A stretch of DNA of 64,000 nucleotides from Dehalococcoidia bacterium (GTDB lineage: Bacteria; Chloroflexota; Dehalococcoidia; Plut-88900): positions 154,546 through 218,545 of the forward strand of contig CBDBLV010000003.1 in the NCBI GenBank assembly GCA_965207225.1. Reading direction: 5' to 3'. The position numbers were made by a program, and so were the translations under genes. A model generated the notes under the pieces. The model was not told the origin of the DNA, did not search any database, and saw only the letters and a list, made by a program, of their open reading frames with translations. Numbering within the stretch: the stretch's first letter is position 1; the number at the start of each line of letters is the position of its first letter. Positions 4,417 through 63,469 of the stretch are shown piece after piece.

Positions 4417-4576
4417 GAGACTGGGGGTCCCGCTGTTTGGCTATAGTAGCCACAAGGATATTCGGTATCAAGGTTAGTGGCTTCAAGTAAATAAACGCAC
4501 AACGCCAGGGAAAGTTACCTCGACTGTAGAGGTAGAACGAACCCCCTTAACCACCCTACCCCCCGACCCCCCTCCC

Positions 4577-4782
4577 ATTCCGATGCCCCGCGAGGAATCT
4601 AACGCGCCAGCCCACCAAGCACCCCCATCATCCCCGCCCACCCTATGCCGTCATTCCTGCGGAGGCAGGAATCCATCCCTCCTGAATAATCACCTCCAAC
4701 TCCGCAACTCACCCCACCCCCGACTCCACACATTCCCACTCCGAGACCCCGCGAGGAATCTAAGGCGTCTCTGCCACTAAGC
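4577..4782. repeat. REP-like hairpin repeat cluster (family 1: GTCATTCC..GGAATCC and CCCCGCGAGGAATCTAA units)
   Basis: attccgatgccccgcgaggaatctaa (4577-4602), gtcattcctgcggaggcaggaatccatccctcc (4650-4682) and ccccgcgaggaatctaag (about 4748). Related copies occur at 7753, 7858, 12625, 13447, 13672, 49163, 50637 and 62102. Confidence 0.7.
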
Positions 4783-4785
4783 GCT

Positions 4786-5136
4786 CTAGTCCAAGATCAG
4801 AGCTATGATCTGAACGATGACACTCGCGAAGGCAAGCACACCCGTGATCGTGGCTATGGATACTGCGAACCAGTTTTTCTTAAGCCAGACTCTCTTAGGA
4901 TATTTGAGCTGCTCTAAATAATTAAGCCCTTTAAGAGTTGTACGGGCATTGTCTGGGTCTACATATCCTGCGCGGCTCAAGAGATAGAAGGCATACTCAT
5001 GCTGGAATCGCACAAAGGCCTTGAAATGCACCTCTGTCGCAGCGTCCAGAACCTTTATCATCTCCTCTTTAAGCTGGTTATTTATACCGCTCACCCGCAA
5101 CATTCTCCACTCAATTTTCTGGCCAATGTGAATCAA
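4786..5136 (-). CDS. hypothetical tail-anchored membrane protein (105-116 aa)
   Basis: Low-GC ORF on the same strand as, and directly after, 5111-5536. It ends in one hydrophobic helix (WFAVSIATITGVLAFASVIVQIIALIL). The start is ambiguous: TTG at 5136 or ATG at 5103. Confidence 0.45.
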   Translation of the reverse strand: MIHIGQKIEWRMLRVSGINNQLKEEMIKVLDAATEVHFKAFVRFQHEYAFYLLSRAGYVDPDNARTTLKGLNYLEQLKYPKRVWLKKNWFAVSIATITGVLAFASVIVQIIALILD

Positions 5137-5536
5137 GATTTTGAACTACCGCGCGAAAACCCTCTAACGCGTCGTTTTTCTTGGAAGACTCCTCAGCAGA
5201 GTCATTCCTGGCTTCACCTATTTCAGTATCTTGAAATATTGACACAAGGAATAATGTGGTCTCAGCCTCGCGAAGTTTAGGTAGCACGAAACTCCTAACC
5301 CCTGCACCTGTAACCTTATCTAAAGTTTGCAGAGAGTAAGTCAAGGCCATCATCAATGCCGTGACTTGCCCATCCAAATACCCTATACGGTCCAAGTTAT
5401 CGGCCGTTGACTTAACCAGCATTTTATTTGTTTCTATGAGTTTCCTTATGACTTCCTCAGTATCAGATAATGCTACCTTGTTTTCCAAAGTCATCTTCTT
5501 GGTTTCTAGTAGCTCTAGACGGTCATTCATATCCAT
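5111..5536 (-). CDS. hypothetical helical/coiled-coil protein (141 aa)
   Basis: ATG at 5536 preceded by AAGGAG 5 nt upstream, only 15 nt after the MTase-HNH stop. Low GC, with heptad-like charged/hydrophobic pattern. I recognise no family. Confidence 0.5.
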   Translation of the reverse strand: MDMNDRLELLETKKMTLENKVALSDTEEVIRKLIETNKMLVKSTADNLDRIGYLDGQVTALMMALTYSLQTLDKVTGAGVRSFVLPKLREAETTLFLVSIFQDTEIGEARNDSAEESSKKNDALEGFRAVVQNLDSHWPEN

Positions 5537-5551
5537 GATTTCTCCTTATTC

Positions 5552-6934
5552 CTAGCCCCCCAACCTCGCCACCAGATAAGCCATATCCCGATCCCCCTTG
5601 ATCCGGTTGCAATTCGGGCACAATAGCTGCAGATTGTCCGGGTGGTCCGACCCCCCACGACTCCTCGGCACCACGTGGTCCACCTCCATGATCCTGAACA
5701 GAAACTCCACCTTGCACCCCGCACACCTCCCCTCCTGCCGACCAAACAGCACGTGCTTCTGCTTCCGATACGGTATCGGCGCATCGATATCCGTCCGACG
5801 CGGGATGTCCGTCCGGGCCGTCACCAGCCGTTCATGGAACAGGTCTCCCATGAACTCCCGCAGCCGCATGTTCACCAATTCGACAGCCTTCTCTGAGATA
5901 TCGATCCCCACCCACTTCCTCCCCAGCTTCTCCGCCGCTACGCAAGCCGTCGCACACCCGCAAAACGGGTCCAGCACCACATCCCCCTCATTCGACGATG
6001 CTGAGATGATACGCTCCAACAGGGCGAGCGGCTTCTGGGTAGGGTAGCCTGTTCGCTCTTTTGCGTGGGGTTGGACAGGCCTTATATCTGTCCACTGATC
6101 TTGTAGAGGGACTCCGGGCATTTCATCGAGATACCGTTTGTATTGAGGCACAGCACCTGGTTTAGTTTGGACTATGCGGCCCTCCTTAATGAGTTGTGCC
6201 ATCCGTTCTTCACTGTATCGCCAATATCTGGTAACTCCCATTACCTCATATATGGGGTTGCCCTTTGCGGCCCCACCTGGCCCCGTTAAATCCCCTAACC
6301 GATATCTTCTGCCAGTTTCAGGCTCTACGTGACGATAGAAACGGTCTACATAGTCCTCGTCGTATTCGGTATAGAGTGGGTTCCACGTCCAGTTATTGCC
6401 ATTAGAGTAGAAGAGCAGCGAGTCGCGTATGCGTCCGTGTTGTCGTCGGCCTTGCTTGGTGTCACTGTGGGCACTACTCCGTTTCCAAGATATGTCACTC
6501 AGGAAGTTCCTCATCCCAAATATCGAATCCATCAACAACTTCAGGTAGTGCCCCGCTGTAGGGTCGCAGTGCAGGTATATCGACCCCGTACCTTTCAACA
6601 CCCGGCGCATCTCCAGCAGCCGCACCGCCATCATGCACAGGTAGGACTGCATCCCCTTTCCGTGCGTCAGCCTCGCCGTCTCTATCACCTTGTACATCGC
6701 CGGCTGCTCATCCGCTATCAGCCCCATCCACGCCGTGTCCAGGTCCGACAGCGTCCACGTGTCCTTGAACGCCGCCCCCGCCGCCCGCGACCCGACCGGC
6801 GCAGCATAGTTCCGGTTCGAATTGAACGGCGGATCGAGATATATCAAATCCACCGACTCGGAGTTCAACCCCCTCAAAATATCGAGGTTGTCCCCCGTCC
6901 AGATCGTCTTGTCCACAAAATTCGCTTCAGCCAT
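5552..6934 (-). CDS. beta-class N6-adenine/N4-cytosine DNA methyltransferase fused to a C-terminal HNH endonuclease domain
   Basis: Motif IV DPPFNSNRNY near the N-terminus, SIYLHCD, and motif I VVLDPFCGCATACVAAEKLGRKWVGIDI near residue 325 (order IV then I means beta class). C-terminal HNH finger: CAGC..EVDHVVPRSRGGSDHPDNLQLLCPNCN. Confidence 0.85.
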   Translation of the reverse strand: MAEANFVDKTIWTGDNLDILRGLNSESVDLIYLDPPFNSNRNYAAPVGSRAAGAAFKDTWTLSDLDTAWMGLIADEQPAMYKVIETARLTHGKGMQSYLCMMAVRLLEMRRVLKGTGSIYLHCDPTAGHYLKLLMDSIFGMRNFLSDISWKRSSAHSDTKQGRRQHGRIRDSLLFYSNGNNWTWNPLYTEYDEDYVDRFYRHVEPETGRRYRLGDLTGPGGAAKGNPIYEVMGVTRYWRYSEERMAQLIKEGRIVQTKPGAVPQYKRYLDEMPGVPLQDQWTDIRPVQPHAKERTGYPTQKPLALLERIISASSNEGDVVLDPFCGCATACVAAEKLGRKWVGIDISEKAVELVNMRLREFMGDLFHERLVTARTDIPRRTDIDAPIPYRKQKHVLFGRQEGRCAGCKVEFLFRIMEVDHVVPRSRGGSDHPDNLQLLCPNCNRIKGDRDMAYLVARLGG

Positions 6935-7096
6935 GCCGTCCAGTTTACTGAAACAAGGCTATACCCTCAAAGCCCCTACCTCCCATCTTCCCCACCCCCG
7001 ACCTGGAATCCATCCCTCCCTTCAAGAAATCAAAGTAATCCCTTAATCCCATAAATCACAGTTCAGACATTCCCCAAAAAAGCCGCACATTTGCTC

Positions 7097-7125
7097 TTGA
7101 CACACCTGTCCGATCGTACTATCAT
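7097..7125 (+). promoter_or_regulatory. near-consensus sigma70-type promoter (TTGACA-17-TATCAT) with no ORF behind it
   Basis: TTGACA at 7097-7102, a 17-nt spacer, TATCAT at 7120-7125. AAAGGAGG lies at 7161-7168 but no ATG/GTG/TTG follows within 15 nt. Confidence 0.4.
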
Positions 7126-7354
7126 ATCCTGCGTTCGATCGAACACTAACTCACATCATCAAAGGAGGAACCAAAAACCCAGGGAAGCCCCGAGACCCGA
7201 CCGAGGACTCAACGCCCTAGCCCATCCCAAGACCTCTCCCCTCTCTTGCAGGGGCGACCGGCCAATCGCCCCCCTCGCGAGACAGGCAGGTTGCGGCACA
7301 AGCGAACAGCGCCATCTCCTCACCACAGGCCCCGTGCCCCTTCCCTGACACCCA

Positions 7355-7659
7355 GGCGATGGAAAGACGTTCTGGCCTAAGCTGTTCCCGTTAGGCCTAA
7401 CCCCGCATTAGCGGGCCCAGGCCTTGCCCCAGGCGCGTTGGTGGCGCGCCAAGTGGGCCGGCGCCGATATGGCGTCCGGCGGCAGTAACCTTTCGTTCCT
7501 GCTCACCACAGGAGCAGGTATGGCCGTGACCCAATTAAACACGGCTGATAGCATTTCATTCCTTCGGCCCCTGGGCCGGTGCGCCTCCCCTGGGCGCATG
7601 TCTAAAATCTGCCCGAATGGGAACAGGGGCACAGCCTCCGGCCAGCGTCTTCCATCGCC
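7355..7659. repeat. hairpin-dense element bounded by terminal inverted repeats (core GGCGATGGAAG); candidate MITE or structured RNA, copy 1
   Basis: GGCGATGGAAAGACG..CTGGCC (7355-7377) pairs with GGCCAGCGTCTTCCATCGCC (7640-7659). The interior contains at least 6 local GC-rich hairpins. Copy 2 is at 12782-13137. Confidence 0.4.
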
Positions 7660-7752: not shown

Positions 7753-7892
7753 GTCATTCCCGAGGAAAGCCTGCCCCCGAGAAGTCGGGGGGGAATCCAT
7801 CCCTCCGAAACAATCACCCACAACCCCGCAGTTCACCCCATCCCCTCCCTTCCTTATCCGTCATTCCGGCCCCCGAGCCGGAATCCATCCCC
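7753..7892. repeat. REP-like hairpins, family 1 (two copies)
   Basis: gtcattcccgaggaaagcctgcccccgagaagtcgggggggaatccatccctcc (7753-7806) and ccgtcattccggcccccgagccggaatccatcccc (7858-7892). Confidence 0.7.
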
Positions 7893-7975: not shown

Positions 7976-8075
7976 CACGCGAAATCCCCAGAAATCCCTT
8001 CAGGCGTCATTCAATCAAAACAGCTACGAGTTCAATCAATGTTCAATCAAACTCAATCATATTCAATCCACCTTC
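7976..8075 (+). promoter_or_regulatory. about 90-bp promoter-proximal element with phased TCAATCA heptads, copy A (upstream of the DUF35 gene)
   Basis: cacgcgaaatccccagaaatccc..ttcaatcaaaacagctacgagttcaatcaatgttcaatcaaactcaatcatattcaatccaccttcaatca. It is nearly identical to the reverse complement of 12325-12413. Confidence 0.5.
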
Positions 8076-12324: not shown

Positions 12325-12413
12325 ATTTTGATTGAATGTTGATTGAACATTGATTGAACTCGTAGCTGGTTTGATTGAACGACGCCTAGAGGGGTTTCTG
12401 GGGATTTCGCGTG
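12325..12413 (-). promoter_or_regulatory. about 90-bp promoter-proximal element with phased TCAATCA heptads, copy B (upstream of the amidohydrolase gene)
   Basis: The reverse complement reads cacgcgaaatccccagaaacccc..ttcaatcaaaccagctacgagttcaatcaatgttcaatcaacattcaatca. A TATAAT (12306-12301, minus) follows, without a good -35. Confidence 0.5.
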
Positions 12414-12414
12414 T

Positions 12415-13752
12415 CACAGGGGGGAGGGCGACCCGCCGGTCGCCCCTACGGAGAGGGGATACCCCCAGCCCCACAGGGGAACCCTCTCCCCCTTGGTCCC
12501 CCTCTCCCTTAGGGCCTTTAAGGGAGAGGGGGAGAGAAAAACAGAGGGAGCCGTTGGCGCGCCTGCGCCAACGGCTCCCTCTAGTTTCATTACTGGGGAG
12601 AGGGAACAGGACACCACCCCAGATTCCTCGCAGGGCATCGGAATGACAGTGTGAGGGGCGTTGGTTGGTGGTTGCAGCACTGCGCCGTTCCGCTCTTGAG
12701 ACCCTTCGACTACGCTCAGGGCGAGCGGAACCCCCACCCATAGGTTCCCGATCGGGGTCGGGAATGACGGGAAGGGGGTGTAGGCGATGGAAGGACCATG
12801 ACCAGGGCGCAGGGGCCGGGGGGCCAAGCTGCGCCAGACCCGCAAGTCGGCAGGGCGAGAGGGAGTATCCCCTTGCGGCCTGTCCGTATGCGGGAAGCGC
12901 TCCATCATTCGGAGGGATGGGAGCGCAGACTCTTTACCGTCTCTGGGTGAATGGGAATCTCCGAGAGGAGAGACAGCGGAGTAGTCCCGGGGCGCGATGC
13001 CCTCGGGGGACCCGACAAAGTCGGGGTAGAGCCCCTCGCACATGGCGGGAGCTAGACGCCCTGATGAGGGGGCGCAGCCGCGGGGTAGACCTGGAAGACA
13101 GGTGTGCCGCGGAGAGTCGATGGACCTTCCATCGCCTGGAGGAAAGGGTGAGGGGAGGAGGCGCGTGTCGTAGGCCGGGCGGTCGCGCAGCGCCCGGGTG
13201 CGACGTGAGTTGATCAGGCTGGTGCGGCTCATAAACTCCTTATTCCTTTCCTGTGTGATGGGCTCCGAGGTACGAGGTCGGTGGCCCTGGGGAGTAGTAT
13301 AGCACGGGGGTTCAGGTAGAGCAAATGTGCAGGTTTGGGGGGGATGCCCCTCAACCCCACAGGGGAGCCCTCACTCCCTTGATCCCCTTCTCCTTTAAGG
13401 CCTATAAGGGAGAGGGGGAGGGAGGTAAAGGGCATGAGTGGGCAAATCCTAGATTCCTCGCGGGGCATCGGAATGACAGTGCAATGCGTGGGTTGGTAGA
13501 AGGCAGACGTGACAGGTTGGAGGGATGTGGGCCACCCCTCGCTCATACTTCGAGTAACCTCAGCATGAGCGGTCCCGCGCCGGGGAGGGCGACCACATAA
13601 GTTCATCCCTACAGTGGATTGTGACCCCGGCGGCCCCGCACCTGGGGAAGGGAATCACCCACCCCACCACCCCGGGATTCCCGAGTAGTCGGGGATGACG
13701 AAGTGCAAAGGATGGATTCCGGGTCGGGAGCGGGATAACAGAGTAGGGAGGG
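12415..13752. repeat. 1.3-kb mosaic of REP-like repeats (families 1-4) with no credible gene
   Basis: Family 3 at 12421-12451, family 4 at 12500-12532 and 13384-13418, family 1 at 12625-12650, 12740-12775, 13447-13480 and 13672-13705. Family 2 is at 13540-13572, with a variant at 12697-12735. Confidence 0.75.
12782..13137. repeat. TIR-bounded hairpin-dense element (core GGCGATGGAAG), copy 2
   Basis: AGGCGATGGAAGGACC (12782-12797) against GGACCTTCCATCGCCT (13122-13137), matching 15/16 as an inverted repeat. Confidence 0.4.
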
Positions 13753-29926: not shown

Positions 29927-31267
29927 TTACTCCCCCGTCACCCGATCAACAAACTCCTTAGCCAGCCCGAGATACGAGTCCGGGTCCAGCAGGCCGTCTA
30001 TCTCCGCCTCCGATAGGACGCTGGTAACCCTTTCATCCTCCATCAGCAGTTCTTTGAGCCACCGACCTTCCTCGAACGCCTTTTGCGCCGCCTCGTAGAC
30101 CACATCGTGGGCCGTGAACCGGCCCAGGGTTTCTGCCAACCCGATCATCACCGCCTCGGACATTATCAGTCCTCGGCTGTGGTCCAGGTTCCGGCGCATG
30201 GCCTCGGGCTTCACCTGCAGGTTCTCGAATATCCCGATGGACAGGTTGAGTAAGCCCGCGCTCAAGATGCACCCTTCCGATACGAAGTGCCATTCGCTGT
30301 GCCACACTGCCGAGTCCCGCTCGTCCTCATGCTCCAGCCCCTCCAGCGCCGCCCCGGCCAGCGCTCGGATGGTCCGGGCCACGGCGATCACCTGCTCAGA
30401 CCAGGTCGGGTTTCGCTTCTGGGGCATCGTGCTGCTCCCGACCTGCCCCGCCCCGAACTTCTCCTCAAGCTCGCCCATTTCAGTCCGCTGCATCAGCACT
30501 ACTTCGTGGGTCATCTTGGCCAGACTGCCCGCAATCATCGAAAGCACCGTGATGAACTCAACAAGGTTGTCCCGGGCCGAGTGCCACGTAATGACCGGGT
30601 TCCCGAGCCCCAGGTCCTCCATCAGGGCGTCCCGCACCTCCGAGGCCCTGTCACCCAACGACGAGAGCGTTCCAGCTCCTCCGCTGAACTGCCCTACCAA
30701 AAGCCTGGGCTCGCACTGCTCCATCCGCTCGATGTGTCGGCCCATCTCCGCCGCCCACACCGCCACCTTGTAACCGAAGGTGATCGGCAATGCCTGCTGC
30801 CCATGCGTCCTACCCGCCATCAGAGTCCCCCGGTGCTCCTTTGCCAGGTCGATGAGCGTCTGGTGCACTCGCCGCAGGTCCCGGGTCAGGATCGACAGGG
30901 CCTGCCTCAGCTGCAGCACCATCCCCGTGTCCATGATGTCCTGCGTCGTCGCGCCCCAGTGGATGTACTCCCCCGAGTCCCCCGGACAGTGCCGTTCCAG
31001 CTCCTCGATGACCGGTACGATCGGGTGCCGGGTCACGTCCATGTCCCGCTTGATCGCTTCGATGCTCATTTCGTCGGCGTTGCAGTGGACGACTATGGCA
31101 TCGGCGGCTTCCTGTGGGACTACGCCCAGGCGACCTTCGACTCGGGCCAGGGCTGCTTCCACATCGAGCCAGCTCTGCAGCTGGTTCCGCTCCTCGAAAA
31201 CGGCCCGCATCTCGTCGGTGCCGAACAGGTCCTTGAAAAACGCCGAGTCCAGGGGTGTCGATCCCAT
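29927..31267 (-). CDS. fumarate-lyase superfamily enzyme (adenylosuccinate lyase / 3-carboxy-cis,cis-muconate cycloisomerase-like)
   Basis: Start at MGSTPLDSAFF (ATG 31267). Contains the superfamily signature GSSTMPQKRNP. Confidence 0.85.
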   Translation of the reverse strand: MGSTPLDSAFFKDLFGTDEMRAVFEERNQLQSWLDVEAALARVEGRLGVVPQEAADAIVVHCNADEMSIEAIKRDMDVTRHPIVPVIEELERHCPGDSGEYIHWGATTQDIMDTGMVLQLRQALSILTRDLRRVHQTLIDLAKEHRGTLMAGRTHGQQALPITFGYKVAVWAAEMGRHIERMEQCEPRLLVGQFSGGAGTLSSLGDRASEVRDALMEDLGLGNPVITWHSARDNLVEFITVLSMIAGSLAKMTHEVVLMQRTEMGELEEKFGAGQVGSSTMPQKRNPTWSEQVIAVARTIRALAGAALEGLEHEDERDSAVWHSEWHFVSEGCILSAGLLNLSIGIFENLQVKPEAMRRNLDHSRGLIMSEAVMIGLAETLGRFTAHDVVYEAAQKAFEEGRWLKELLMEDERVTSVLSEAEIDGLLDPDSYLGLAKEFVDRVTGE

Positions 31268-31444
31268 GTGTGATGTTCCTTTCGGGAGTTGAAGATACTC
31301 GCGACAAACAAGCCTAATGCTCGCTGTCGGGTATGGCAACAAATCATAATTCTTTTCCATTTGCCTAAACGCCAAGTGATCAACCCTGCATTCTAGTCAT
31401 GTATAATGATGTATCCCAAATGGGGACCTAATGCATAGGGGTGT

Positions 31445-31711
31445 GTGATGGCGAAGACTGCAATGGTTCGTGCGCGGGTAGAGCCGGAATTGAAGCGCCA
31501 GGCCGAAGAACTATTTTCGGAGCTTGGACTATCAGCAACGGAGGCAATTACGCTCTTCTACAAGCAGGTCGCAATACATCGCGGCTTACCTTTCTCTGTG
31601 CGAATTCCCAATAAAAAGACCATGGAGGCCATGAGACAAGCTGAGAATCGAGAAGACCTCCTCGAATATTCCAGTATCGAAGACTTCAGGGAAGACCTCG
31701 AGCGCGCATAA
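31445..31711 (+). CDS. dinJ: type II antitoxin, RelB/DinJ family
   Basis: VRARVEPELKRQAEELFSELGLSATEAITLFYKQVAIHRGLPF is a DinJ-type RHH antitoxin. The toxin gene is directly adjacent. Confidence 0.85.
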   Translation: MMAKTAMVRARVEPELKRQAEELFSELGLSATEAITLFYKQVAIHRGLPFSVRIPNKKTMEAMRQAENREDLLEYSSIEDFREDLERA

Positions 31712-31978
31712 ATGCGGCTCCGCACAACCAGGCAGTTTAGGAGAGATGCAGGTAGGGCGAAGAGACGTGGCAAGTCACTCGACAAACTCTGCGCAGTAGT
31801 AGAACTGTTATTGTCGGGCGAGCCCCTCCCTGAAAGATACCGACCTCACCGCTTGTCAGGTCAGTGGTCTCACTATTGGGAATGCCACATCGAACCCGAT
31901 TGGCTTCTGGTTTGGAGCCGAGAGAATGGTGACTTGATCCTGATACGCACCGGTACGCACTCAGACCTTTTCAATTGA
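31712..31978 (+). CDS. yafQ: type II toxin, YafQ family (RelE/ParE superfamily mRNA interferase)
   Basis: RQFRRDAGRAKRRGKSLDKL..HRLSGQWSHYWECHIEPDWLLVW..LILIRTGTHSDLF matches the YafQ pattern. Confidence 0.85.
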   Translation: MRLRTTRQFRRDAGRAKRRGKSLDKLCAVVELLLSGEPLPERYRPHRLSGQWSHYWECHIEPDWLLVWSRENGDLILIRTGTHSDLFN

Positions 31979-56571: not shown

Positions 56572-57450
56572 CTAGACCTGCTCGTGGGCGTGGTATGAGC
56601 TACGCACCAGGGGCCCAGATTCCACATGACGGAACCTCATCCTCTGGCCCTCTTCCTTCAATTTGGAGAATTCTTCGGGGGTGTAGTAGCGGCTGATGGG
56701 GAGGTGAGATTCGGAGGGTCGGAGGTACTGGCCTATGGTCAGAATGTCGCAGCCGACATCTCGGAGGTCACGCATGGTGTGAATCACTTCCTCCACCTCC
56801 TCCCCGACACCCAGCATGATGCCGGATTTGGTCAGCTTGTCCGGTGATTTGGCTTTGGCCCTCTCCAGTAACTGTAAAGACCTTTCGTAAGTGGCCCGAG
56901 AGCGAACGACTTTCTGGAGCCGGGCGACGGTCTCGATGTTGTGGTTTAGGATGTCGGGCTCGGCGGCCAGCACGGTGTCCAGGCTGGATTCGGAGCCGCC
57001 AAAGTCCGGTATGAGAACCTCGATGCGGGTGTCGGGGTTGCGGTCACGGGTCCTGGAAATGGTCTGTGCGAAGGCGGATGCCCCGCCATCGGGGAGGTCG
57101 TCCCGGGCCACTGATGTTATGACCACGTGGGAGAGGCGCATCTTCTCGACGGCCCGGGCCACGCGCTCGGGTTCCAGGGGGTCGTTCCAGGTGGGCTTGC
57201 CGGAGGTGACGGCGCAGAAGCGGCAGGCCCGGGTGCAGACATCGCCCAGGATCATGAAAGTGGCTGTACGGTTCTGCCAGCATTCGAAGATGTTGGGGCA
57301 GTTGGCCTCTTCGCAGACCGTGTTCAGGGACATTTTGCGCATCAGGGACTTCAGCTCCATGTAGTTGGGGCCGGTCTTGAGGCGCACCTTCAGCCACGGG
57401 GGACGGCGGGAGGGTGGGGAAGGTTTTGTGGGGGTTGCTGTGGGTCCCAT
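56572..57450 (-). CDS. lipA: lipoyl synthase (radical SAM)
   Basis: [21 protein letters not shown] and the radical-SAM CTRACRFC cluster. The start is uncertain (ATG 57450 preferred; ATG 57504 is possible). Confidence 0.85.
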
Positions 57451-57694
57451 ATCCAAAAGGTCTCGGTGCCAATTCCCTAAGGGACACGCATGCACATTAT
57501 ACACCGTCGTCGTTAGGAGAATTGAGAAGCCTGATTGCTATGCAATGGCACGAGTACAGGGATGGACGCAGGTTCTGGGCCGGGCCAGAGGAGGATGTCT
57601 ACTATTAAGACTTTGAATCTATTATTGAGATTCTTTCGCAATAATTGACGCTTTGTCACACTAAACTTGTTGAATCGAAAACGGCGTATTATTC

Positions 57695-57723
57695 TTGACA
57701 ATAAGCGCGCACAGCTTTAGCAT
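57695..57723 (+). promoter_or_regulatory. near-consensus promoter (TTGACA-17-TAGCAT) of the zinc ABC operon
   Basis: TTGACA at 57695-57700 and TAGCAT at 57718-57723, inside an AT-rich 200-bp intergenic tract. Confidence 0.5.
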
Positions 57724-57773
57724 GGCTAGCTGTCCTTAGGCCCAACGCAAGACTTCTTTGCCAAACAAACAGC

Positions 57774-57786
57774 GAGATTTTATCTC
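57774..57786. promoter_or_regulatory. inverted repeat GAGAT-TTT-ATCTC in the znuA leader (candidate metalloregulator operator)
   Basis: Located 18 nt upstream of ATG 57805. A related ATGAGAT-TTTGT-ATCTCAT lies at 61267-61285 and GAATCT-N7-AGATTC at 57615-57633. Confidence 0.35.
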
Positions 57787-57804
57787 AATAGTGGGGTTCA
57801 CACT

Positions 57805-59436
57805 ATGACATTCAACACCTTTAGAGGTCGTTTGCCGATGGCGTTGCTAGCACTCATGCTGGTCGGCCTGCTGGCATTTGCCGGAATAGCGGGATGCTCG
57901 GGTGAAGAAGATGTGGTGGAAGAAGTAGAGCAAACCACCGAAGTAGTTGAGGGTGAAGAAGAGGTGGAACAGGCCACCGAAGCAGCTGAGGGTGAAGAAG
58001 AGGTAGTGGAAGAGGTGGAACAGGCCACCGAAGCAGCTGAGGGTGAAGAAGAGGCAGAGGAGGTGGAGGAGGCGGATAAGATAAAGGTTGTTACTACCAC
58101 CAATTTTGTGGCTGATTGGGTCGAAAACGTGGGCGGCAACCGGGTGGAAGTGTTCAGCCTGGTCCCGACCGGCGCCGACCCCCACGGGTTCCAGCCCGGG
58201 GCGAGAGACGTTGCGAGGGTTGCGGATGCCGACCTGGTATTCAGCGTAGGGCTGGGGCTGGAAGACTCCTGGCTAAATGACCTGCTCCAAAACGCAGCCC
58301 GGGACCCCTCCCGCATTGTAGCGCTGACGGATTCGATAGAGCCGATAGAGTTTGGTGAAACCCACAGGGAAGACGTGGAACTGATCGCGGCCATCGAGGA
58401 AATCGTCCATGAAGTTGAAGAAGGCCATTTAAGCGCTGCTGATGCCATCGAGGAGATAGAGCACCTCCTGGCTGCCAAGGAAGAGGGCCACGACGACCAT
58501 GACCACGACGAGGAAGAGGGCCACGACGACCATGACCACGACGAGGAAGATGACCACGACGACCACGACCACGATGAGGAAGATGACCACGACGACCATG
58601 ACCACGATGAGGAAGATGACCACGACGACCATGACCACGATGAGGAAGATGACCACGACGACCATGACCACGATGAGGAAGATGACCACGACGACCATGA
58701 CCACGATGAGGAAGATGACCACGACGACCATGACCACGATGAGGAAGATGACCACGACGACCATGACCATGGAGGGGAAAGTGTTGCCGCAAAGGTCCAG
58801 GCCATAATCGACCAGGTGGAAAGCGGCGCTATGTCCTTCGGCGAGGCCATTGAGGAGATCGACCACCTGGTGCATGATGAGGAGGATGCCCACGCGGGAC
58901 ACGGGCACGGCGTAGAAGACCCACACTTCTGGTTCGACCCACTACGGGTGAAGCTGGCAGTGGACTACATAGCTGAGCAGTTGTCAGTGCTGGACCCGGC
59001 CGGGGCCAACGGTTACTGGTCCAATGCGACAGCCTACAAGGCTCAACTGGATGAGCTGGACGCATGGACGCAAGAGCAGGTCAGTGCGGTGCCTGAGTCC
59101 AACCGATTCCTATTGACCTCCCACGACAGCCTCGGATACTTCGCCGACAGGTATGGCTTCGAGGTGATTGGAGTCATACTCGGAATCACCACGGAGGTAG
59201 AGCCTTCGGCGGAGCACCTGGTTGAACTCGTGCATACTATCGAGAGATACAATGTGCCGGCGGTGTTCGGCGAGACTACGGTCAGTGAACGGCTGGCCGC
59301 TGCGCTCGCTGGGGAGACGGGCGCCGAGTTGGTTAAGCTGTACTCGGGCTCGCTGGGCGCGGAAGGAAGCGGCGCGGAAACCTACATAGGCATGTTCAGG
59401 GCCAACGTGGAGAGCATAGTCGGCGCACTGAGGTAG
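57805..59436 (+). CDS. znuA: metal (zinc-type) ABC transporter substrate-binding lipoprotein, ZnuA/TroA family, with a hyper-expanded His/Asp/Glu loop
   Basis: Lipobox IAGC-SG. ZnuA core (KVVTTTNFVADWV, DPHGFQP, DPHFWFDP, SHDSLGYFADRYG). The His-rich loop sits at the canonical position just before DPHFWFDP. Confidence 0.85.
   Translation: MTFNTFRGRLPMALLALMLVGLLAFAGIAGCSGEEDVVEEVEQTTEVVEGEEEVEQATEAAEGEEEVVEEVEQATEAAEGEEEAEEVEEADKIKVVTTTNFVADWVENVGGNRVEVFSLVPTGADPHGFQPGARDVARVADADLVFSVGLGLEDSWLNDLLQNAARDPSRIVALTDSIEPIEFGETHREDVELIAAIEEIVHEVEEGHLSAADAIEEIEHLLAAKEEGHDDHDHDEEEGHDDHDHDEEDDHDDHDHDEEDDHDDHDHDEEDDHDDHDHDEEDDHDDHDHDEEDDHDDHDHDEEDDHDDHDHDEEDDHDDHDHGGESVAAKVQAIIDQVESGAMSFGEAIEEIDHLVHDEEDAHAGHGHGVEDPHFWFDPLRVKLAVDYIAEQLSVLDPAGANGYWSNATAYKAQLDELDAWTQEQVSAVPESNRFLLTSHDSLGYFADRYGFEVIGVILGITTEVEPSAEHLVELVHTIERYNVPAVFGETTVSERLAAALAGETGAELVKLYSGSLGAEGSGAETYIGMFRANVESIVGALR
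58486..58770 (+). repeat. in-frame 33-bp tandem repeat, about 8.6 copies, encoding (G/D)HDDHDHDEE(E/D)
   Basis: Units start at 58486, 58519, 58552 and so on. The five units from 58585 to 58749 are identical at the DNA level. Confidence 0.9.
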
Positions 59437-61696: not shown

Positions 61697-61999
61697 TTAG
61701 ATGGGGAACCACTTCCTTCTAACGTTGCCGAAGCGAGACCGGGACACGAGGTGGTCTTCCTTGCATCCCAGTACGGATTCCTCTGCCTGTATCGTAGCGT
61801 GGGTGATACCGAAGTTGTCATGGGCGAGGTCCTTGATGCTCCTCAAGAGCTCATCCCTGTCTCCTGGGTAGTTGGGATTTATGAGCACATGGGCGGTGAA
61901 GGCGACCATTCCGGGGGTGATTGTCCAGACGTGAACGTCGTGGATGAAGGTAACGCATGGGATGTCCTCGGCGTCCCAGGGCTGGGGATGTGACTCCAC
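61697..61999 (-). pseudogene. C-terminal remnant of a cation-diffusion-facilitator (CzcD/ZitB-type) exporter
   Basis: Only the cytoplasmic domain is present (IHDVHVWTITPGMVAFTAHVLI..FGITHATIQAEE). The roughly 200-aa transmembrane domain is missing and its place is taken by REP sequence. Confidence 0.65.
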
Positions 62000-62046
62000 C
62001 GCTGCCTAGATCTGGAAATATCGTCGGAAGTACGGGTCCGTCAATT

Positions 62047-62163
62047 CTTGAGACCCTTCGACCCAGTTCAGGGCGAGCGAAATGCCCCGCCCCCAAGGGA
62101 TGGATTCCCGATCGGAGTCGGGAATAACGTTTATGCAAAGGTCTCCTTTAAGGGAGAAGGGGA
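62047..62163. repeat. REP-like composite (family 2 variant, family 1, family 4)
   Basis: cttgagacccttcgacccagttcagggcgagcg (62047-62079), ggattcccgatcggagtcgggaataac (62102-62128) and ctcctttaagggagaagggg (62144-62163). Confidence 0.7.
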
Positions 62164-62350
62164 AGAATAAACAGAGAGATGCACCTGCACCAAGACACAA
62201 GTGCATCTCTCCGATTTGTTACTGGAGGAGGACCAGGGGCCCTGATTGCAATATCATTGTTTCAATTTATGGCCTAGTTTGGTACAATCAAAAACCGTGA
62301 GCAAAAAAAGCTCGAAATGGGTGCCTGATAGGAGAGGAGTGATTTTAGTC

Positions 62351-63469
62351 ATGAGATATAAAGGCTTATTTGGGATGCTTGTACTCGGCGTCCTCCTGGC
62401 CGTGGTTGTCGCTTGCGGCGGTGGGCTTTCGGAGGAGGACGTGGAGACCCGGGCGCAGGAGTTGGCTGACCAGATGGCTGCCGAGATGGCCACGGGCGAA
62501 AGGCTGGCCGCCATACAGGAACGGGGCGTAGTAATATGCGCCAGCAGGAACGACGTACCGGGCTACGGATCCCTTGACGCAGCCGGCAACAACGTCGGAT
62601 TCGACATAGACCTGTGCCGGGCGGTTGCTACCGCGGTGCTCGGGGACCCGAACGCCATTGAGATCCGGCTGATCACGGCGGCGGAACGAGGCCCGACGAT
62701 CCAGTCAGGCGAAGTGGACCTGCTGGTAAGGACCGTGACTTGGACCACCTCCCGAGACGCAAGCTGGGGCAACTACGTGCAGACCATGTTCTACGACGGA
62801 CAGGGTTTCATGGTCCCCAACTCTCTGGGCATTTCCAGCGCCCTGGAGCTAAAGGACGCCACGGTCTGCGTAACCCAGGGAACTACGACAGAACTGAACC
62901 TCCAGGACTTCTCCAACCAGAACAACCTGAACATCACTCCGCTGACATTCGAGGACACGGACGCCGTGGTCGCTGCTTATGAGAACGAGCAGTGCGACTC
63001 CTTCACCAATGACAACTCCCAGCTGGCCGCGCTGGGCACTGCGCTTTCGGACCGGAGCGCCCACACGATTCTTCCGGACACGATATCGGAAGAGCCCCTG
63101 GGGCCTGTTGTTCCTCATGGGGACGACCAGTGGTTCGACATCGTGAAGACGGTCATGGGCATCCTGATCTACTCGGAGGCCTACGGGGTTGACTCGGGCA
63201 GCGTGCCCACATCGAGCACCGGAGACACCAAGGTTGACAGGCTGTTCGGCCTAGAGGGCTCCTTTGGACAGGACGCTCTTGGCCTGGACCAGACTGTTGC
63301 GCAGGACGTAATCAAGGCCGTTGGAAACTACGGCGAGATCTACGACCGCAACCTGGGCCCCGACGGGATCAACCTCCCCCGGGAAGGCGGACGGAACGCA
63401 CTGTGGTCCAACGCCCCGTGCACCGACTGCCCGAAGGGCGGCCAGATATACGCAGCGCCTCTGCGTTAA
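62351..63469 (+). CDS. amino-acid ABC transporter substrate-binding lipoprotein (family 3, AapJ/BztA-like general amino-acid type)
   Basis: Start at MRYKGLFGMLVLGVLLAVVVAC-GGG (ATG 62351, GGAGAGGAG upstream). GVVICASRNDVPGYG, FDIDLCRAVA and LVRTVTWTTSRD. Confidence 0.85.
   Translation: MRYKGLFGMLVLGVLLAVVVACGGGLSEEDVETRAQELADQMAAEMATGERLAAIQERGVVICASRNDVPGYGSLDAAGNNVGFDIDLCRAVATAVLGDPNAIEIRLITAAERGPTIQSGEVDLLVRTVTWTTSRDASWGNYVQTMFYDGQGFMVPNSLGISSALELKDATVCVTQGTTTELNLQDFSNQNNLNITPLTFEDTDAVVAAYENEQCDSFTNDNSQLAALGTALSDRSAHTILPDTISEEPLGPVVPHGDDQWFDIVKTVMGILIYSEAYGVDSGSVPTSSTGDTKVDRLFGLEGSFGQDALGLDQTVAQDVIKAVGNYGEIYDRNLGPDGINLPREGGRNALWSNAPCTDCPKGGQIYAAPLR

Follow-up and report, generated by a model that had tools for sequence, protein, structure and literature searches.

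The window analysed here is a 64-kb stretch of a Dehalococcoidia contig (GenBank assembly GCA_965207225.1, contig CBDBLV010000003.1, positions 154,546 to 218,545), in which three minus-strand open reading frames (ORFs) lie in tight succession: ORF1 encodes a DNA methyltransferase (methylase) fused to an HNH nuclease, ORF2 a helical protein and ORF3 a small membrane protein. An earlier note, made from the sequence alone, had singled them out as a low-GC cassette and a candidate multi-component immunity system. From a comparison of the window (WIN) with related loci (labelled L001 to L110), we come with moderate confidence to a different reading: ORF1 is probably an autonomous, horizontally mobile, single-chain restriction-modification (R-M) enzyme resembling those of Type IIC, while ORF2 and ORF3 would form a separable accessory module in a variable slot behind it. 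The genes and the parts of ORF1 are the following (nucleotides, nt; amino acids, aa).

5552-6934, minus strand: ORF1, a 460-aa single-chain beta-class DNA methyltransferase bearing an HNH nuclease at its C-terminus (Pfam, PADLOC, homologues)
6035-6514, minus strand: target-recognition region of ORF1, residues 141-300, variable and low in GC (column identity, third-position GC)
5552-5794, minus strand: linker and HNH (beta-beta-alpha-metal) domain of ORF1 with a CxxC...CxxC zinc site, residues 381-460 (conserved residues)
5111-5536, minus strand: ORF2, a 141-aa all-helical protein (ribosome-binding site, homologues)
4786-5103, minus strand: ORF3, a 105-aa tail-anchored protein (homologues, structure model)

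The three frames are present as first listed (5552-6934, 460 aa; 5111-5536, 141 aa; 4786-5136, 116 aa), as is the 15-nt spacing between the ORF1 stop and ORF2, where an AAGGAG (5547-5542) lies 5 nt ahead of the ATG at 5536. Only the third had to be shortened: the 116-aa version starts at a TTG (5136), and the ATG at 5103 is the likelier start, giving the 105 aa of the public gene call (P0121) within the 102-107 aa of the homologues and leaving a 7-nt gap behind the ORF2 stop codon. Since 1.9% of shuffles of the AT-rich stretch reach a stop-free run of at least 141 codons, ORF length alone is weak evidence of coding; what establishes both small ORFs as coding is that they have homologues. Ahead of the ORF1 start there is no Shine-Dalgarno sequence, and a promoter-like TTGAGG-17-TAAACT site (6935-6975, minus strand) ends 7 nt before the ATG, which suggests a leaderless mRNA; in relatives, conservation of this site stops beyond about 13 nt.

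The low guanine-plus-cytosine (GC) content ascribed to the whole cassette applies to ORF2 (42.3%) and ORF3 (46.9%), which are the lowest-GC 420-nt stretches of the window (mean 60.9%), but not to ORF1, which has 56.8% overall and is low only centrally. Its residues 141-300 are encoded at 51% GC, with a third-codon-position GC (GC3) of 0.51, whereas the methylase cores and the HNH domain have a host-like GC3 of about 0.8.

A beta-class methylase and an HNH nuclease in one chain

The domain reading of ORF1 was correct by both Pfam profiles and motif order. N6_N4_Mtase (PF01555) matches residues 28-355 (138.6 bits, cut-off 26.7, E 3.8e-40) and HNH (PF01844) residues 404-449 (52.4 bits, cut-off 21.4, E 5.8e-14). 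Motif IV (DPPF, residue ~34) comes ahead of motif I (FCGCA, ~324, within VLDPFCGCA at ~320-328), and the methylase is thus beta-class; the DPPF favours N6-adenine over N4-cytosine as the predicted methylation target. With PADLOC, ORF1 matched the MTase_II and MTase_III models only (MTase_III E 3.6e-39). The closest solved structures to the methylase part are CcrM (best, E 5.6e-16), a Type III Mod subunit (6k0w, residues 9-338) and MboIIA, and those closest to the HNH part are a group II intron maturase, Cas9 and McrA. Against NCBIfam-type equivalog models, ORF1 scored 81 bits for CcrM (cut-off 830) and 43 bits for IscB (cut-off 175), the latter in the HNH region only.

This protein belongs to a large family. 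More than 8000 homologues were found by protein search, of which the top 120 are all methylase-HNH fusions, 75-92% identical to ORF1, and a scan of one genome per species located the methylase-HNH gene at no fewer than 577 sites. The hosts are mostly metagenome-assembled genomes (MAGs) of Dehalococcoidia and other Chloroflexota, while Acidobacteriota, Binatia and Alpha- and Deltaproteobacteria are represented as well. Two or three copies are present in several of the genomes. Some records are named as RHO, COS or IRC bins, names suggestive of sponge-microbiome MAGs.

In an alignment of 78 full-length members (55-90% identity), per-column identity to the window protein is 0.8-0.9 in the catalytic cores and 0.40-0.55 over residues 141-300. 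The residues C404, C407, D419, H420, N434, C439, C442, N443 and K446 of the HNH domain are each identical in 94-95% of these members; the nuclease is thus under purifying selection. Among the eleven loci closest by core, the N-terminal core is at least 93% and the C-terminal core 76-98% identical, whereas the recognition region is only 33-87% identical. Specificity modules have thus been swapped on near-constant cores, in the pattern of R-M arms races, which points to selection for new specificities.

The nuclease also varies in kind. In L084 (3193-4859) a methylase of the same family, with FCGCG as its motif I, is fused to Mrr_cat (PD-(D/E)XK-type) in place of HNH, in a gene that is frameshifted in an assembly of 3x coverage; this implies that the nuclease module is exchangeable. 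As a separate matter, the 9.2-Mb genome of Candidatus Marinacidobacterales (OZ240210.1) carries three methylase-HNH copies (L034, L035, L036), each with the same 234-aa ORF upstream and an IS1595-type transposase nearby, and the gene there appears to belong to a larger repeated mobile unit.

Type IIC enzymes unite methylation and cleavage in one chain, and MmeI needs no separate methylase; in most of them the methylase is of the gamma class and the nuclease, at the N-terminus, a PD-(D/E)XK enzyme, and BtgZI has an N-terminal alpha-class methylase and a C-terminal PD-(D/Q)XK nuclease (PMC4081073). ORF1 is like these Type IIC/IIG enzymes (MmeI, Eco57I, BtgZI) in carrying both domains in one polypeptide, with a single recognition module presumably directing the two, and in having no conserved partner gene, but its methylase is beta-class and N-terminal and its nuclease an HNH at the C-terminus, which departs from the typical architecture. 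No publication naming a fusion of a methylase to HNH came up in a full-text literature search. As predicted from its domains, the combination of a beta-class methylase with a C-terminal HNH is a new architecture for a combined R-M enzyme and falls into no characterised family.

By homology, the methyltransferase core and the swappable recognition region would bind and methylate a short DNA motif. The tethered, zinc-stabilised HNH domain, if it behaves as in the analogous Type IIC and Type IIS enzymes, would nick or cut near unmethylated sites; a double-strand cut would take two ORF1 molecules. Should both predicted activities prove real, the fusion would represent a new single-chain R-M architecture with thousands of natural variants. 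Its recognition regions, shuffled on a near-constant scaffold, would then constitute a ready specificity library for enzymology and biotechnology, and the family a major uncounted share of the defence repertoire in uncultured Chloroflexota.

Neighbouring genes and the slot behind the methylase-HNH gene

When all ORFs within 3.5 kb of the gene were clustered across 80 reference-genome loci, no universal partner gene was found among them. Among the 110 largest adjacent ORFs, 96 Pfam families are represented, each with at most three occurrences; there are housekeeping enzymes, integrases, transposases of the IS1595 and IS110 types, PaREP1, Uma2 (twice) and DUF559 (once). The neighbours vary freely, an outcome that the earlier note had itself named as one that would speak against its proposal. 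No separate conserved restriction endonuclease stands beside the methylase in these 110 ORFs. Because no neighbour is conserved, ORF1 would need no partner protein. This also bears on the comparison with Type III systems (Mod and Res): ORF1 aligns with the Mod subunit 6k0w over most of the methylase length, but it has no adjacent Res gene, and its nuclease is fused and of the HNH family. A Res helicase-nuclease was found neither in the window cassette nor among the recurrent neighbour families, and the 110 adjacent ORFs include one SNF2-related protein.

The position directly behind the methylase-HNH stop codon deserves particular attention. The closest relatives of ORF1 (L004, L107 and L108, 90-92% identical) have unrelated genes where the window has ORF2 and ORF3. 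Two of them, L107 and L108 (91-92% identical), are syntenic with each other, though not with the window, and differ only in the slot after the gene: in L107 (8433-10414) it holds an 83-aa ORF, an rve transposase, a DUF2283 gene and a 148-aa ORF, and in L108 (8415-10123) a 349-aa membrane/pentapeptide protein and a 117-aa ORF. The slot is variable also in L004, L005, L007, L017 and L075. Across the window's sub-lineage it is occupied by, among others, a two-helix membrane protein (in L017 and L075), DUF2513, zinc-ribbon and pentapeptide proteins and an 83-aa helical protein, usually with units resembling repetitive extragenic palindromes (REP) behind them. Whatever their family, all slot genes checked in this sub-lineage have 39-51% GC, against 59-61% for the locus; in the distant L006, one gene has 58%. 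The presence of differing low-GC genes behind close relatives of ORF1 marks this position as a hypervariable, horizontally supplied cargo slot. Our impression is that membrane proteins are enriched in it, ORF calling in high-GC DNA being too noisy for reliable counts.

Other sub-lineages of the methylase-HNH gene have recurrent small partners of their own on its upstream side. DUF7662 proteins lie upstream on the same strand, overlapping the gene start, in L011 (5738-5992), L012 (1622-1876), L027 (5465-5989) and L065 (5720-5989), and PaREP1 (HEPN-like) proteins upstream on the same strand in L007 (5567-5980), L022 (5582-5974) and L062 (5354-5980); these ORFs end 9-27 nt ahead of the matched start of the methylase gene. 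In the window, the flanks are of the housekeeping type, as had been said, with an SBP_bac_5 solute-binding protein on one side and ChsH2-like and thiolase-like proteins on the other; none of the compared loci is syntenic with them.

ORF2 and ORF3 as a separable pair

The public protein collection searched does not contain the exact ORF2 sequence, and a word-indexed protein search returned no matches, not even ORF2 itself. An exhaustive HMMER search found a single relative, P0128 in L084 (45% identity, E 2.7e-19), which is the only full-length homologue and sits 590 nt downstream of the frameshifted methylase-Mrr_cat gene. The structure model of ORF2 is helical and of low confidence (predicted local distance difference test, pLDDT, 56).

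For ORF3, a search of a 5.8-billion-protein collection gave seven matches, of which one is the gene call of the window itself and the other six are homologues; the compared loci contain two further homologues, while JGI metagenome contigs and IMG/VR yielded no relatives. The single hydrophobic helix noted at the C-terminus, a predicted membrane helix, is the most conserved part of the protein (WLKKNWFAVSIAAIT...VIVQI). In the model (pLDDT 69), helices at 9-23 and 30-45 are followed by a short hairpin, a helix at 57-67 and a long helix at 69-104. Its N-terminal domain, modelled as helix-helix-wing-helix, aligns in register with DUF2513, a type of small winged-helix protein found in mobile elements, and L005 has a genuine DUF2513 gene (E 3.4e-10) in the same slot. 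This similarity is not significant, however, and ORF3 adds the conserved membrane helix, of which DUF2513 has no counterpart. The DUF2513 profile matches one of nine family members weakly (E 0.0076), and hhalign gives an E of 0.027 (probability 1.8%). The PDB profile search returned a weak match to the transcriptional regulator 2m8g (E 0.043), and Foldseek, run on the model of ORF3, matched nothing at E ≤ 0.001. Neither small protein has a significant match in PADLOC, NCBIfam, PHROGs or Pfam; with PADLOC, ORF2 gave no match and ORF3 only NsnC (E 0.012, not significant).

Members of the ORF3 family lie 2-35 nt behind a methylase-HNH gene in L001, L002, L003, L015 and L109, and ORF3 follows directly behind in the window. 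In L055 the homologue is found upstream, at 1.3 kb from the methylase-HNH gene, and fragments of integrase and transposase genes separate the two. The 774-bp contig L110 bears a partial ORF2 homologue (45% identity, E 2e-18) directly upstream of the closest ORF3 homologue, the stop codon of the one adjoining the start codon of the other; this arrangement shows that the ORF2-ORF3 pair is conserved in a second locus. The possibility raised at the outset that the small ORFs might lack homologues or synteny can be set aside, since both homologues and linkage were found, and the expected co-occurrence with methylase-HNH genes is borne out in part: homologues recur next to methylase-nuclease fusions, but the three-gene set is found in the window only, L110 ending before an upstream gene would show.

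We now consider it quite improbable that the methylase-HNH protein and the two small proteins, the one of 141 aa and the membrane protein of 105 aa, make up a single obligate immunity system of three components. The operon-like packing, with gaps of 15 and 7 nt and a canonical ribosome-binding site, would suit such a system, as would the occurrence of the 105-aa family beside or near a methylase-HNH gene wherever neighbouring DNA is visible, and that of the 141-aa family behind a methylase-nuclease fusion in the window and L084 and beside the 105-aa homologue in L110. Yet ORF3 is found in only two of the 80 reference-genome loci and both small genes are absent from the other 78; the neighbours vary, the closest relatives carry other slot genes, the two genes occur singly (the 105-aa gene without the 141-aa gene in L001, L003 and L015, the reverse in L084), and neither matches a defence model. 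The absence of the pair from most members, its replacement in the closest relatives, the survival of ORF3 beside dead genes and the concentration of the association in one sub-clade together argue against an obligate system, and the three genes of the original proposal are not conserved as a unit. ORF2 and ORF3 would rather be a co-transcribed pair that acts beside methylase-nuclease fusions as an optional modulator, sensor or effector, possibly at the membrane, where foreign DNA enters, and not as an obligatory subunit.

A conserved non-coding element upstream

The cassette had been described as bracketed by REP-filled tracts. REP-like hairpins are indeed there, but the upstream tract also holds a conserved element that is not of this kind, preceded by its own promoter-like site.

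7133-7377, strand not assigned: conserved non-coding element of ~245 nt, into which a lineage-specific stretch of 60 nt is inserted in the window (nhmmer, E 1e-49)
7097-7125, plus strand: sigma-70-type promoter-like site TTGACA-17-TATCAT (11/12), reading into the element and away from the methylase gene

The element is unique in the window, has a sharp distal boundary and recurs in eight other loci, among them the Mrr_cat variant. With the promoter, it spans 7097-7377 in the window, 6075-6269 in L107, 6261-6471 in L108, 5591-5794 in L005, 5466-5667 in L075, 5069-5270 in L017, 5395-5624 in L021, 4133-4309 in L002 and 2636-2829 in L084. In all nine its orientation is the same and the fusion gene lies downstream of it, the measured distances from the gene start being ~230 to ~930 nt; the promoter hexamers are kept (9-12 of 12 matches) while the spacer sequence varies, and an AAGGAGG is conserved 29-36 nt past the promoter with no start codon behind it. 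Indels of 1-2 nt within conserved stretches indicate that the element is non-coding, and a small protein gene in the upstream tract was rejected on the same ground together with the missing start codon and the lack of conservation in tblastx. The conserved divergent promoter points to a divergently transcribed non-coding RNA, and we regard the element as a candidate small or regulatory RNA. It has no match in Rfam and was not found in JGI metagenome contigs.

Such an RNA might work with the methylase-HNH protein, as an antisense or leader regulator or, at the extreme, as a guide-like cofactor comparable to the omega RNA of IscB, a proposal that we hold to be improbable. The constant position and orientation of the element, the Mrr_cat variant included, the conservation of its promoter hexamers over varying spacers, the form of its lineage-specific insertions, which are self-contained hairpins, and the resemblance of the ORF1 HNH region to those of IscB and Cas9 are in its favour. 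Conversely, about 90% of methylase-HNH loci are without the element, its promoter faces away from the gene, so that the RNA would not overlap it, the element shows little covariation and belongs to no Rfam family, and ORF1 has a recognition region of its own and no RuvC or RNA-binding domain. The narrower reading of ORF1 as an IscB-like, RNA-guided protein was rejected: RuvC is missing, the IscB score lies far below its cut-off, neither HEARO nor another Rfam family matches, and most loci have no element.

Weighing the readings

Several observations count against an autonomous R-M enzyme with a separable accessory module. Motif I of ORF1 is FCGCA and not the usual FxGxG, its second glycine being replaced by alanine. 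Neither a beta-class methylase nor an HNH occurs in any characterised Type IIC enzyme covered by the review PMC4081073. Among the matches listed, all relatives from phages, plasmids and IMG/VR cover the methylase part alone (residues ~11-368, reaching ~399 at most); the methylase works as an orphan elsewhere, and the HNH could therefore serve another purpose. As for the small proteins, ORF3 persists beside a broken methylase-HNH gene in L002 and an internally deleted one in L109, and its association with the fusion could be inherited history within one sub-clade; the winged-helix assignment of ORF3 is a possible one, suggested by the model but lacking statistical support. Finally, covariation for the structures of the upstream element is weak on either strand.

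The viral and plasmid relatives bring up a further explanation, in which the fusion is a non-restricting orphan methyltransferase whose HNH domain, rather than acting in defence, serves the spread of the gene or other DNA transactions, such as nicking of a homing-like kind or recombination by which the gene moves or recognition regions and cargo are swapped. Orphan beta-class N6/N4 methylases, such as that of Streptomyces phage Dwayne and CcrM-like enzymes, share the methylase part of ORF1 (46-58% identity to phage and viral-contig methylases over residues 11-368) but lack its HNH in all matches listed, which end at residue ~360-399; among phages and plasmids, the nearest relatives are orphan enzymes of this sort. 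A role of the HNH in phage packaging was rejected, the listed viral relatives all being without it. The gene exists in many copies and many insertion contexts, often adjoining transposase or integrase genes, the 91-92% identical relatives sit in genomic contexts unlike the window's, and recognition regions and cargo are exchanged in mosaic fashion, all of which would fit a gene selected for its own spread. However, no conserved insertion site or flank was found in the compared loci, the HNH lacks a module for DNA recognition other than that of the methylase, and a recognition region that diversifies while the backbone stays constant is the hallmark of R-M specificity arms races. We consider this explanation unlikely.

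It is also conceivable, if rather unlikely, that ORF2 and ORF3 are an independent two-gene module hitchhiking in a slot prone to recombination, for instance a pair of the toxin-antitoxin, abortive-infection or superinfection-exclusion type that includes a small membrane effector, and have no functional tie to the enzyme. The slot holds unrelated low-GC genes elsewhere, many of them, in our impression, small membrane proteins. Moreover, ORF3 homologues are far more diverged from the window protein (29-59% identity in alignment, 61% for the closest by BLASTP) than are the adjacent methylase cores (81-98%). ORF3 also outlasts its neighbour: L109 (1-336) retains a methylase-HNH remnant whose first 53 and last 35 aa have been joined in frame, with an intact ORF3 homologue after 2 nt, and survival beside such dead genes argues against a tight functional dependence. 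On the other hand, no homologue with visible context lies away from a methylase-nuclease gene, and the ORF2 relative in L084 follows a different fusion, with Mrr_cat and a divergent core, for which ancestry from a single locus is a poor explanation. The recurrence of ORF2 and ORF3 with methylase-nuclease fusions across nuclease types argues for a functional relation.

Within the window's sub-lineage, the cassette would consist of the upstream, promoter-driven element of ~245 nt, the methylase-nuclease gene and the hypervariable downstream slot. Taken further, these parts could constitute a platform for defence, modular and so far undescribed, in Dehalococcoidia and the bacteria resident with them, composed of a divergent RNA of ~245 nt, a beta-class methylase-nuclease with exchangeable nuclease (HNH or Mrr) and recognition region, and an integron-like slot whose low-GC plug-ins, such as ORF2 and ORF3, act with the enzyme, for example by coupling restriction to a membrane or sensing step; this is a speculative view that we consider unlikely. 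In any event, the candidate divergent RNA element and the exchanged low-GC slot offer a tractable case of how defence loci acquire and swap accessory genes.

Repeats and other features of the window

The REP-like units around the cassette are of two kinds.

4650-4678, plus strand: REP-like hairpin GTCATTCC-loop-GGAATCCATCC, just past ORF3 (repeat search of the 64 kb)
7753-7802 and 7860-7890, plus strand: two more REP-like hairpins of the GTCATTCC/GGAATCCATCC family, in the upstream tract
4573-4606 and 4734-4767, plus strand: two copies of a second REP-like unit, with the core CCCCGCGAGGAATCTAA at 4586-4602 and 4747-4763

The GTCATTCC...GGAATCCATCC hairpin occurs three times in the 64 kb, always beside the cassette (none expected), and a near-identical copy lies behind the ORF3 homologue in L110. 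A third copy of the CCCCGCGAGGAATCTAA unit is located at 13449 of the window, and similar units lie behind cargo genes in L001-L003, L107 and L108. The hairpins were considered as target-site duplications and rejected as such, the same units being present elsewhere in the window and in related loci. A further repeat of ~85 nt, an array of TTGATTGA motifs, is found at 7976-8059 and, inverted and 92% identical, at 12329-12413, both copies being intergenic; this may be an array of operators or a repeat of some other family.

Elsewhere in the window, the minus strand at 38372-38565 matches the actinobacterial small RNA Ms_IGR-5 in Rfam (55 bits against a gathering threshold of 45, E 1.6e-9), which is unexpected in a Chloroflexota host. 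Other low-GC patches (420-nt stretches below 50% GC against the mean of 61%) lie at ~31250-31720 and ~57400-58020, with weaker ones at ~43650 and ~61950-62420; these may be other horizontally acquired inserts.

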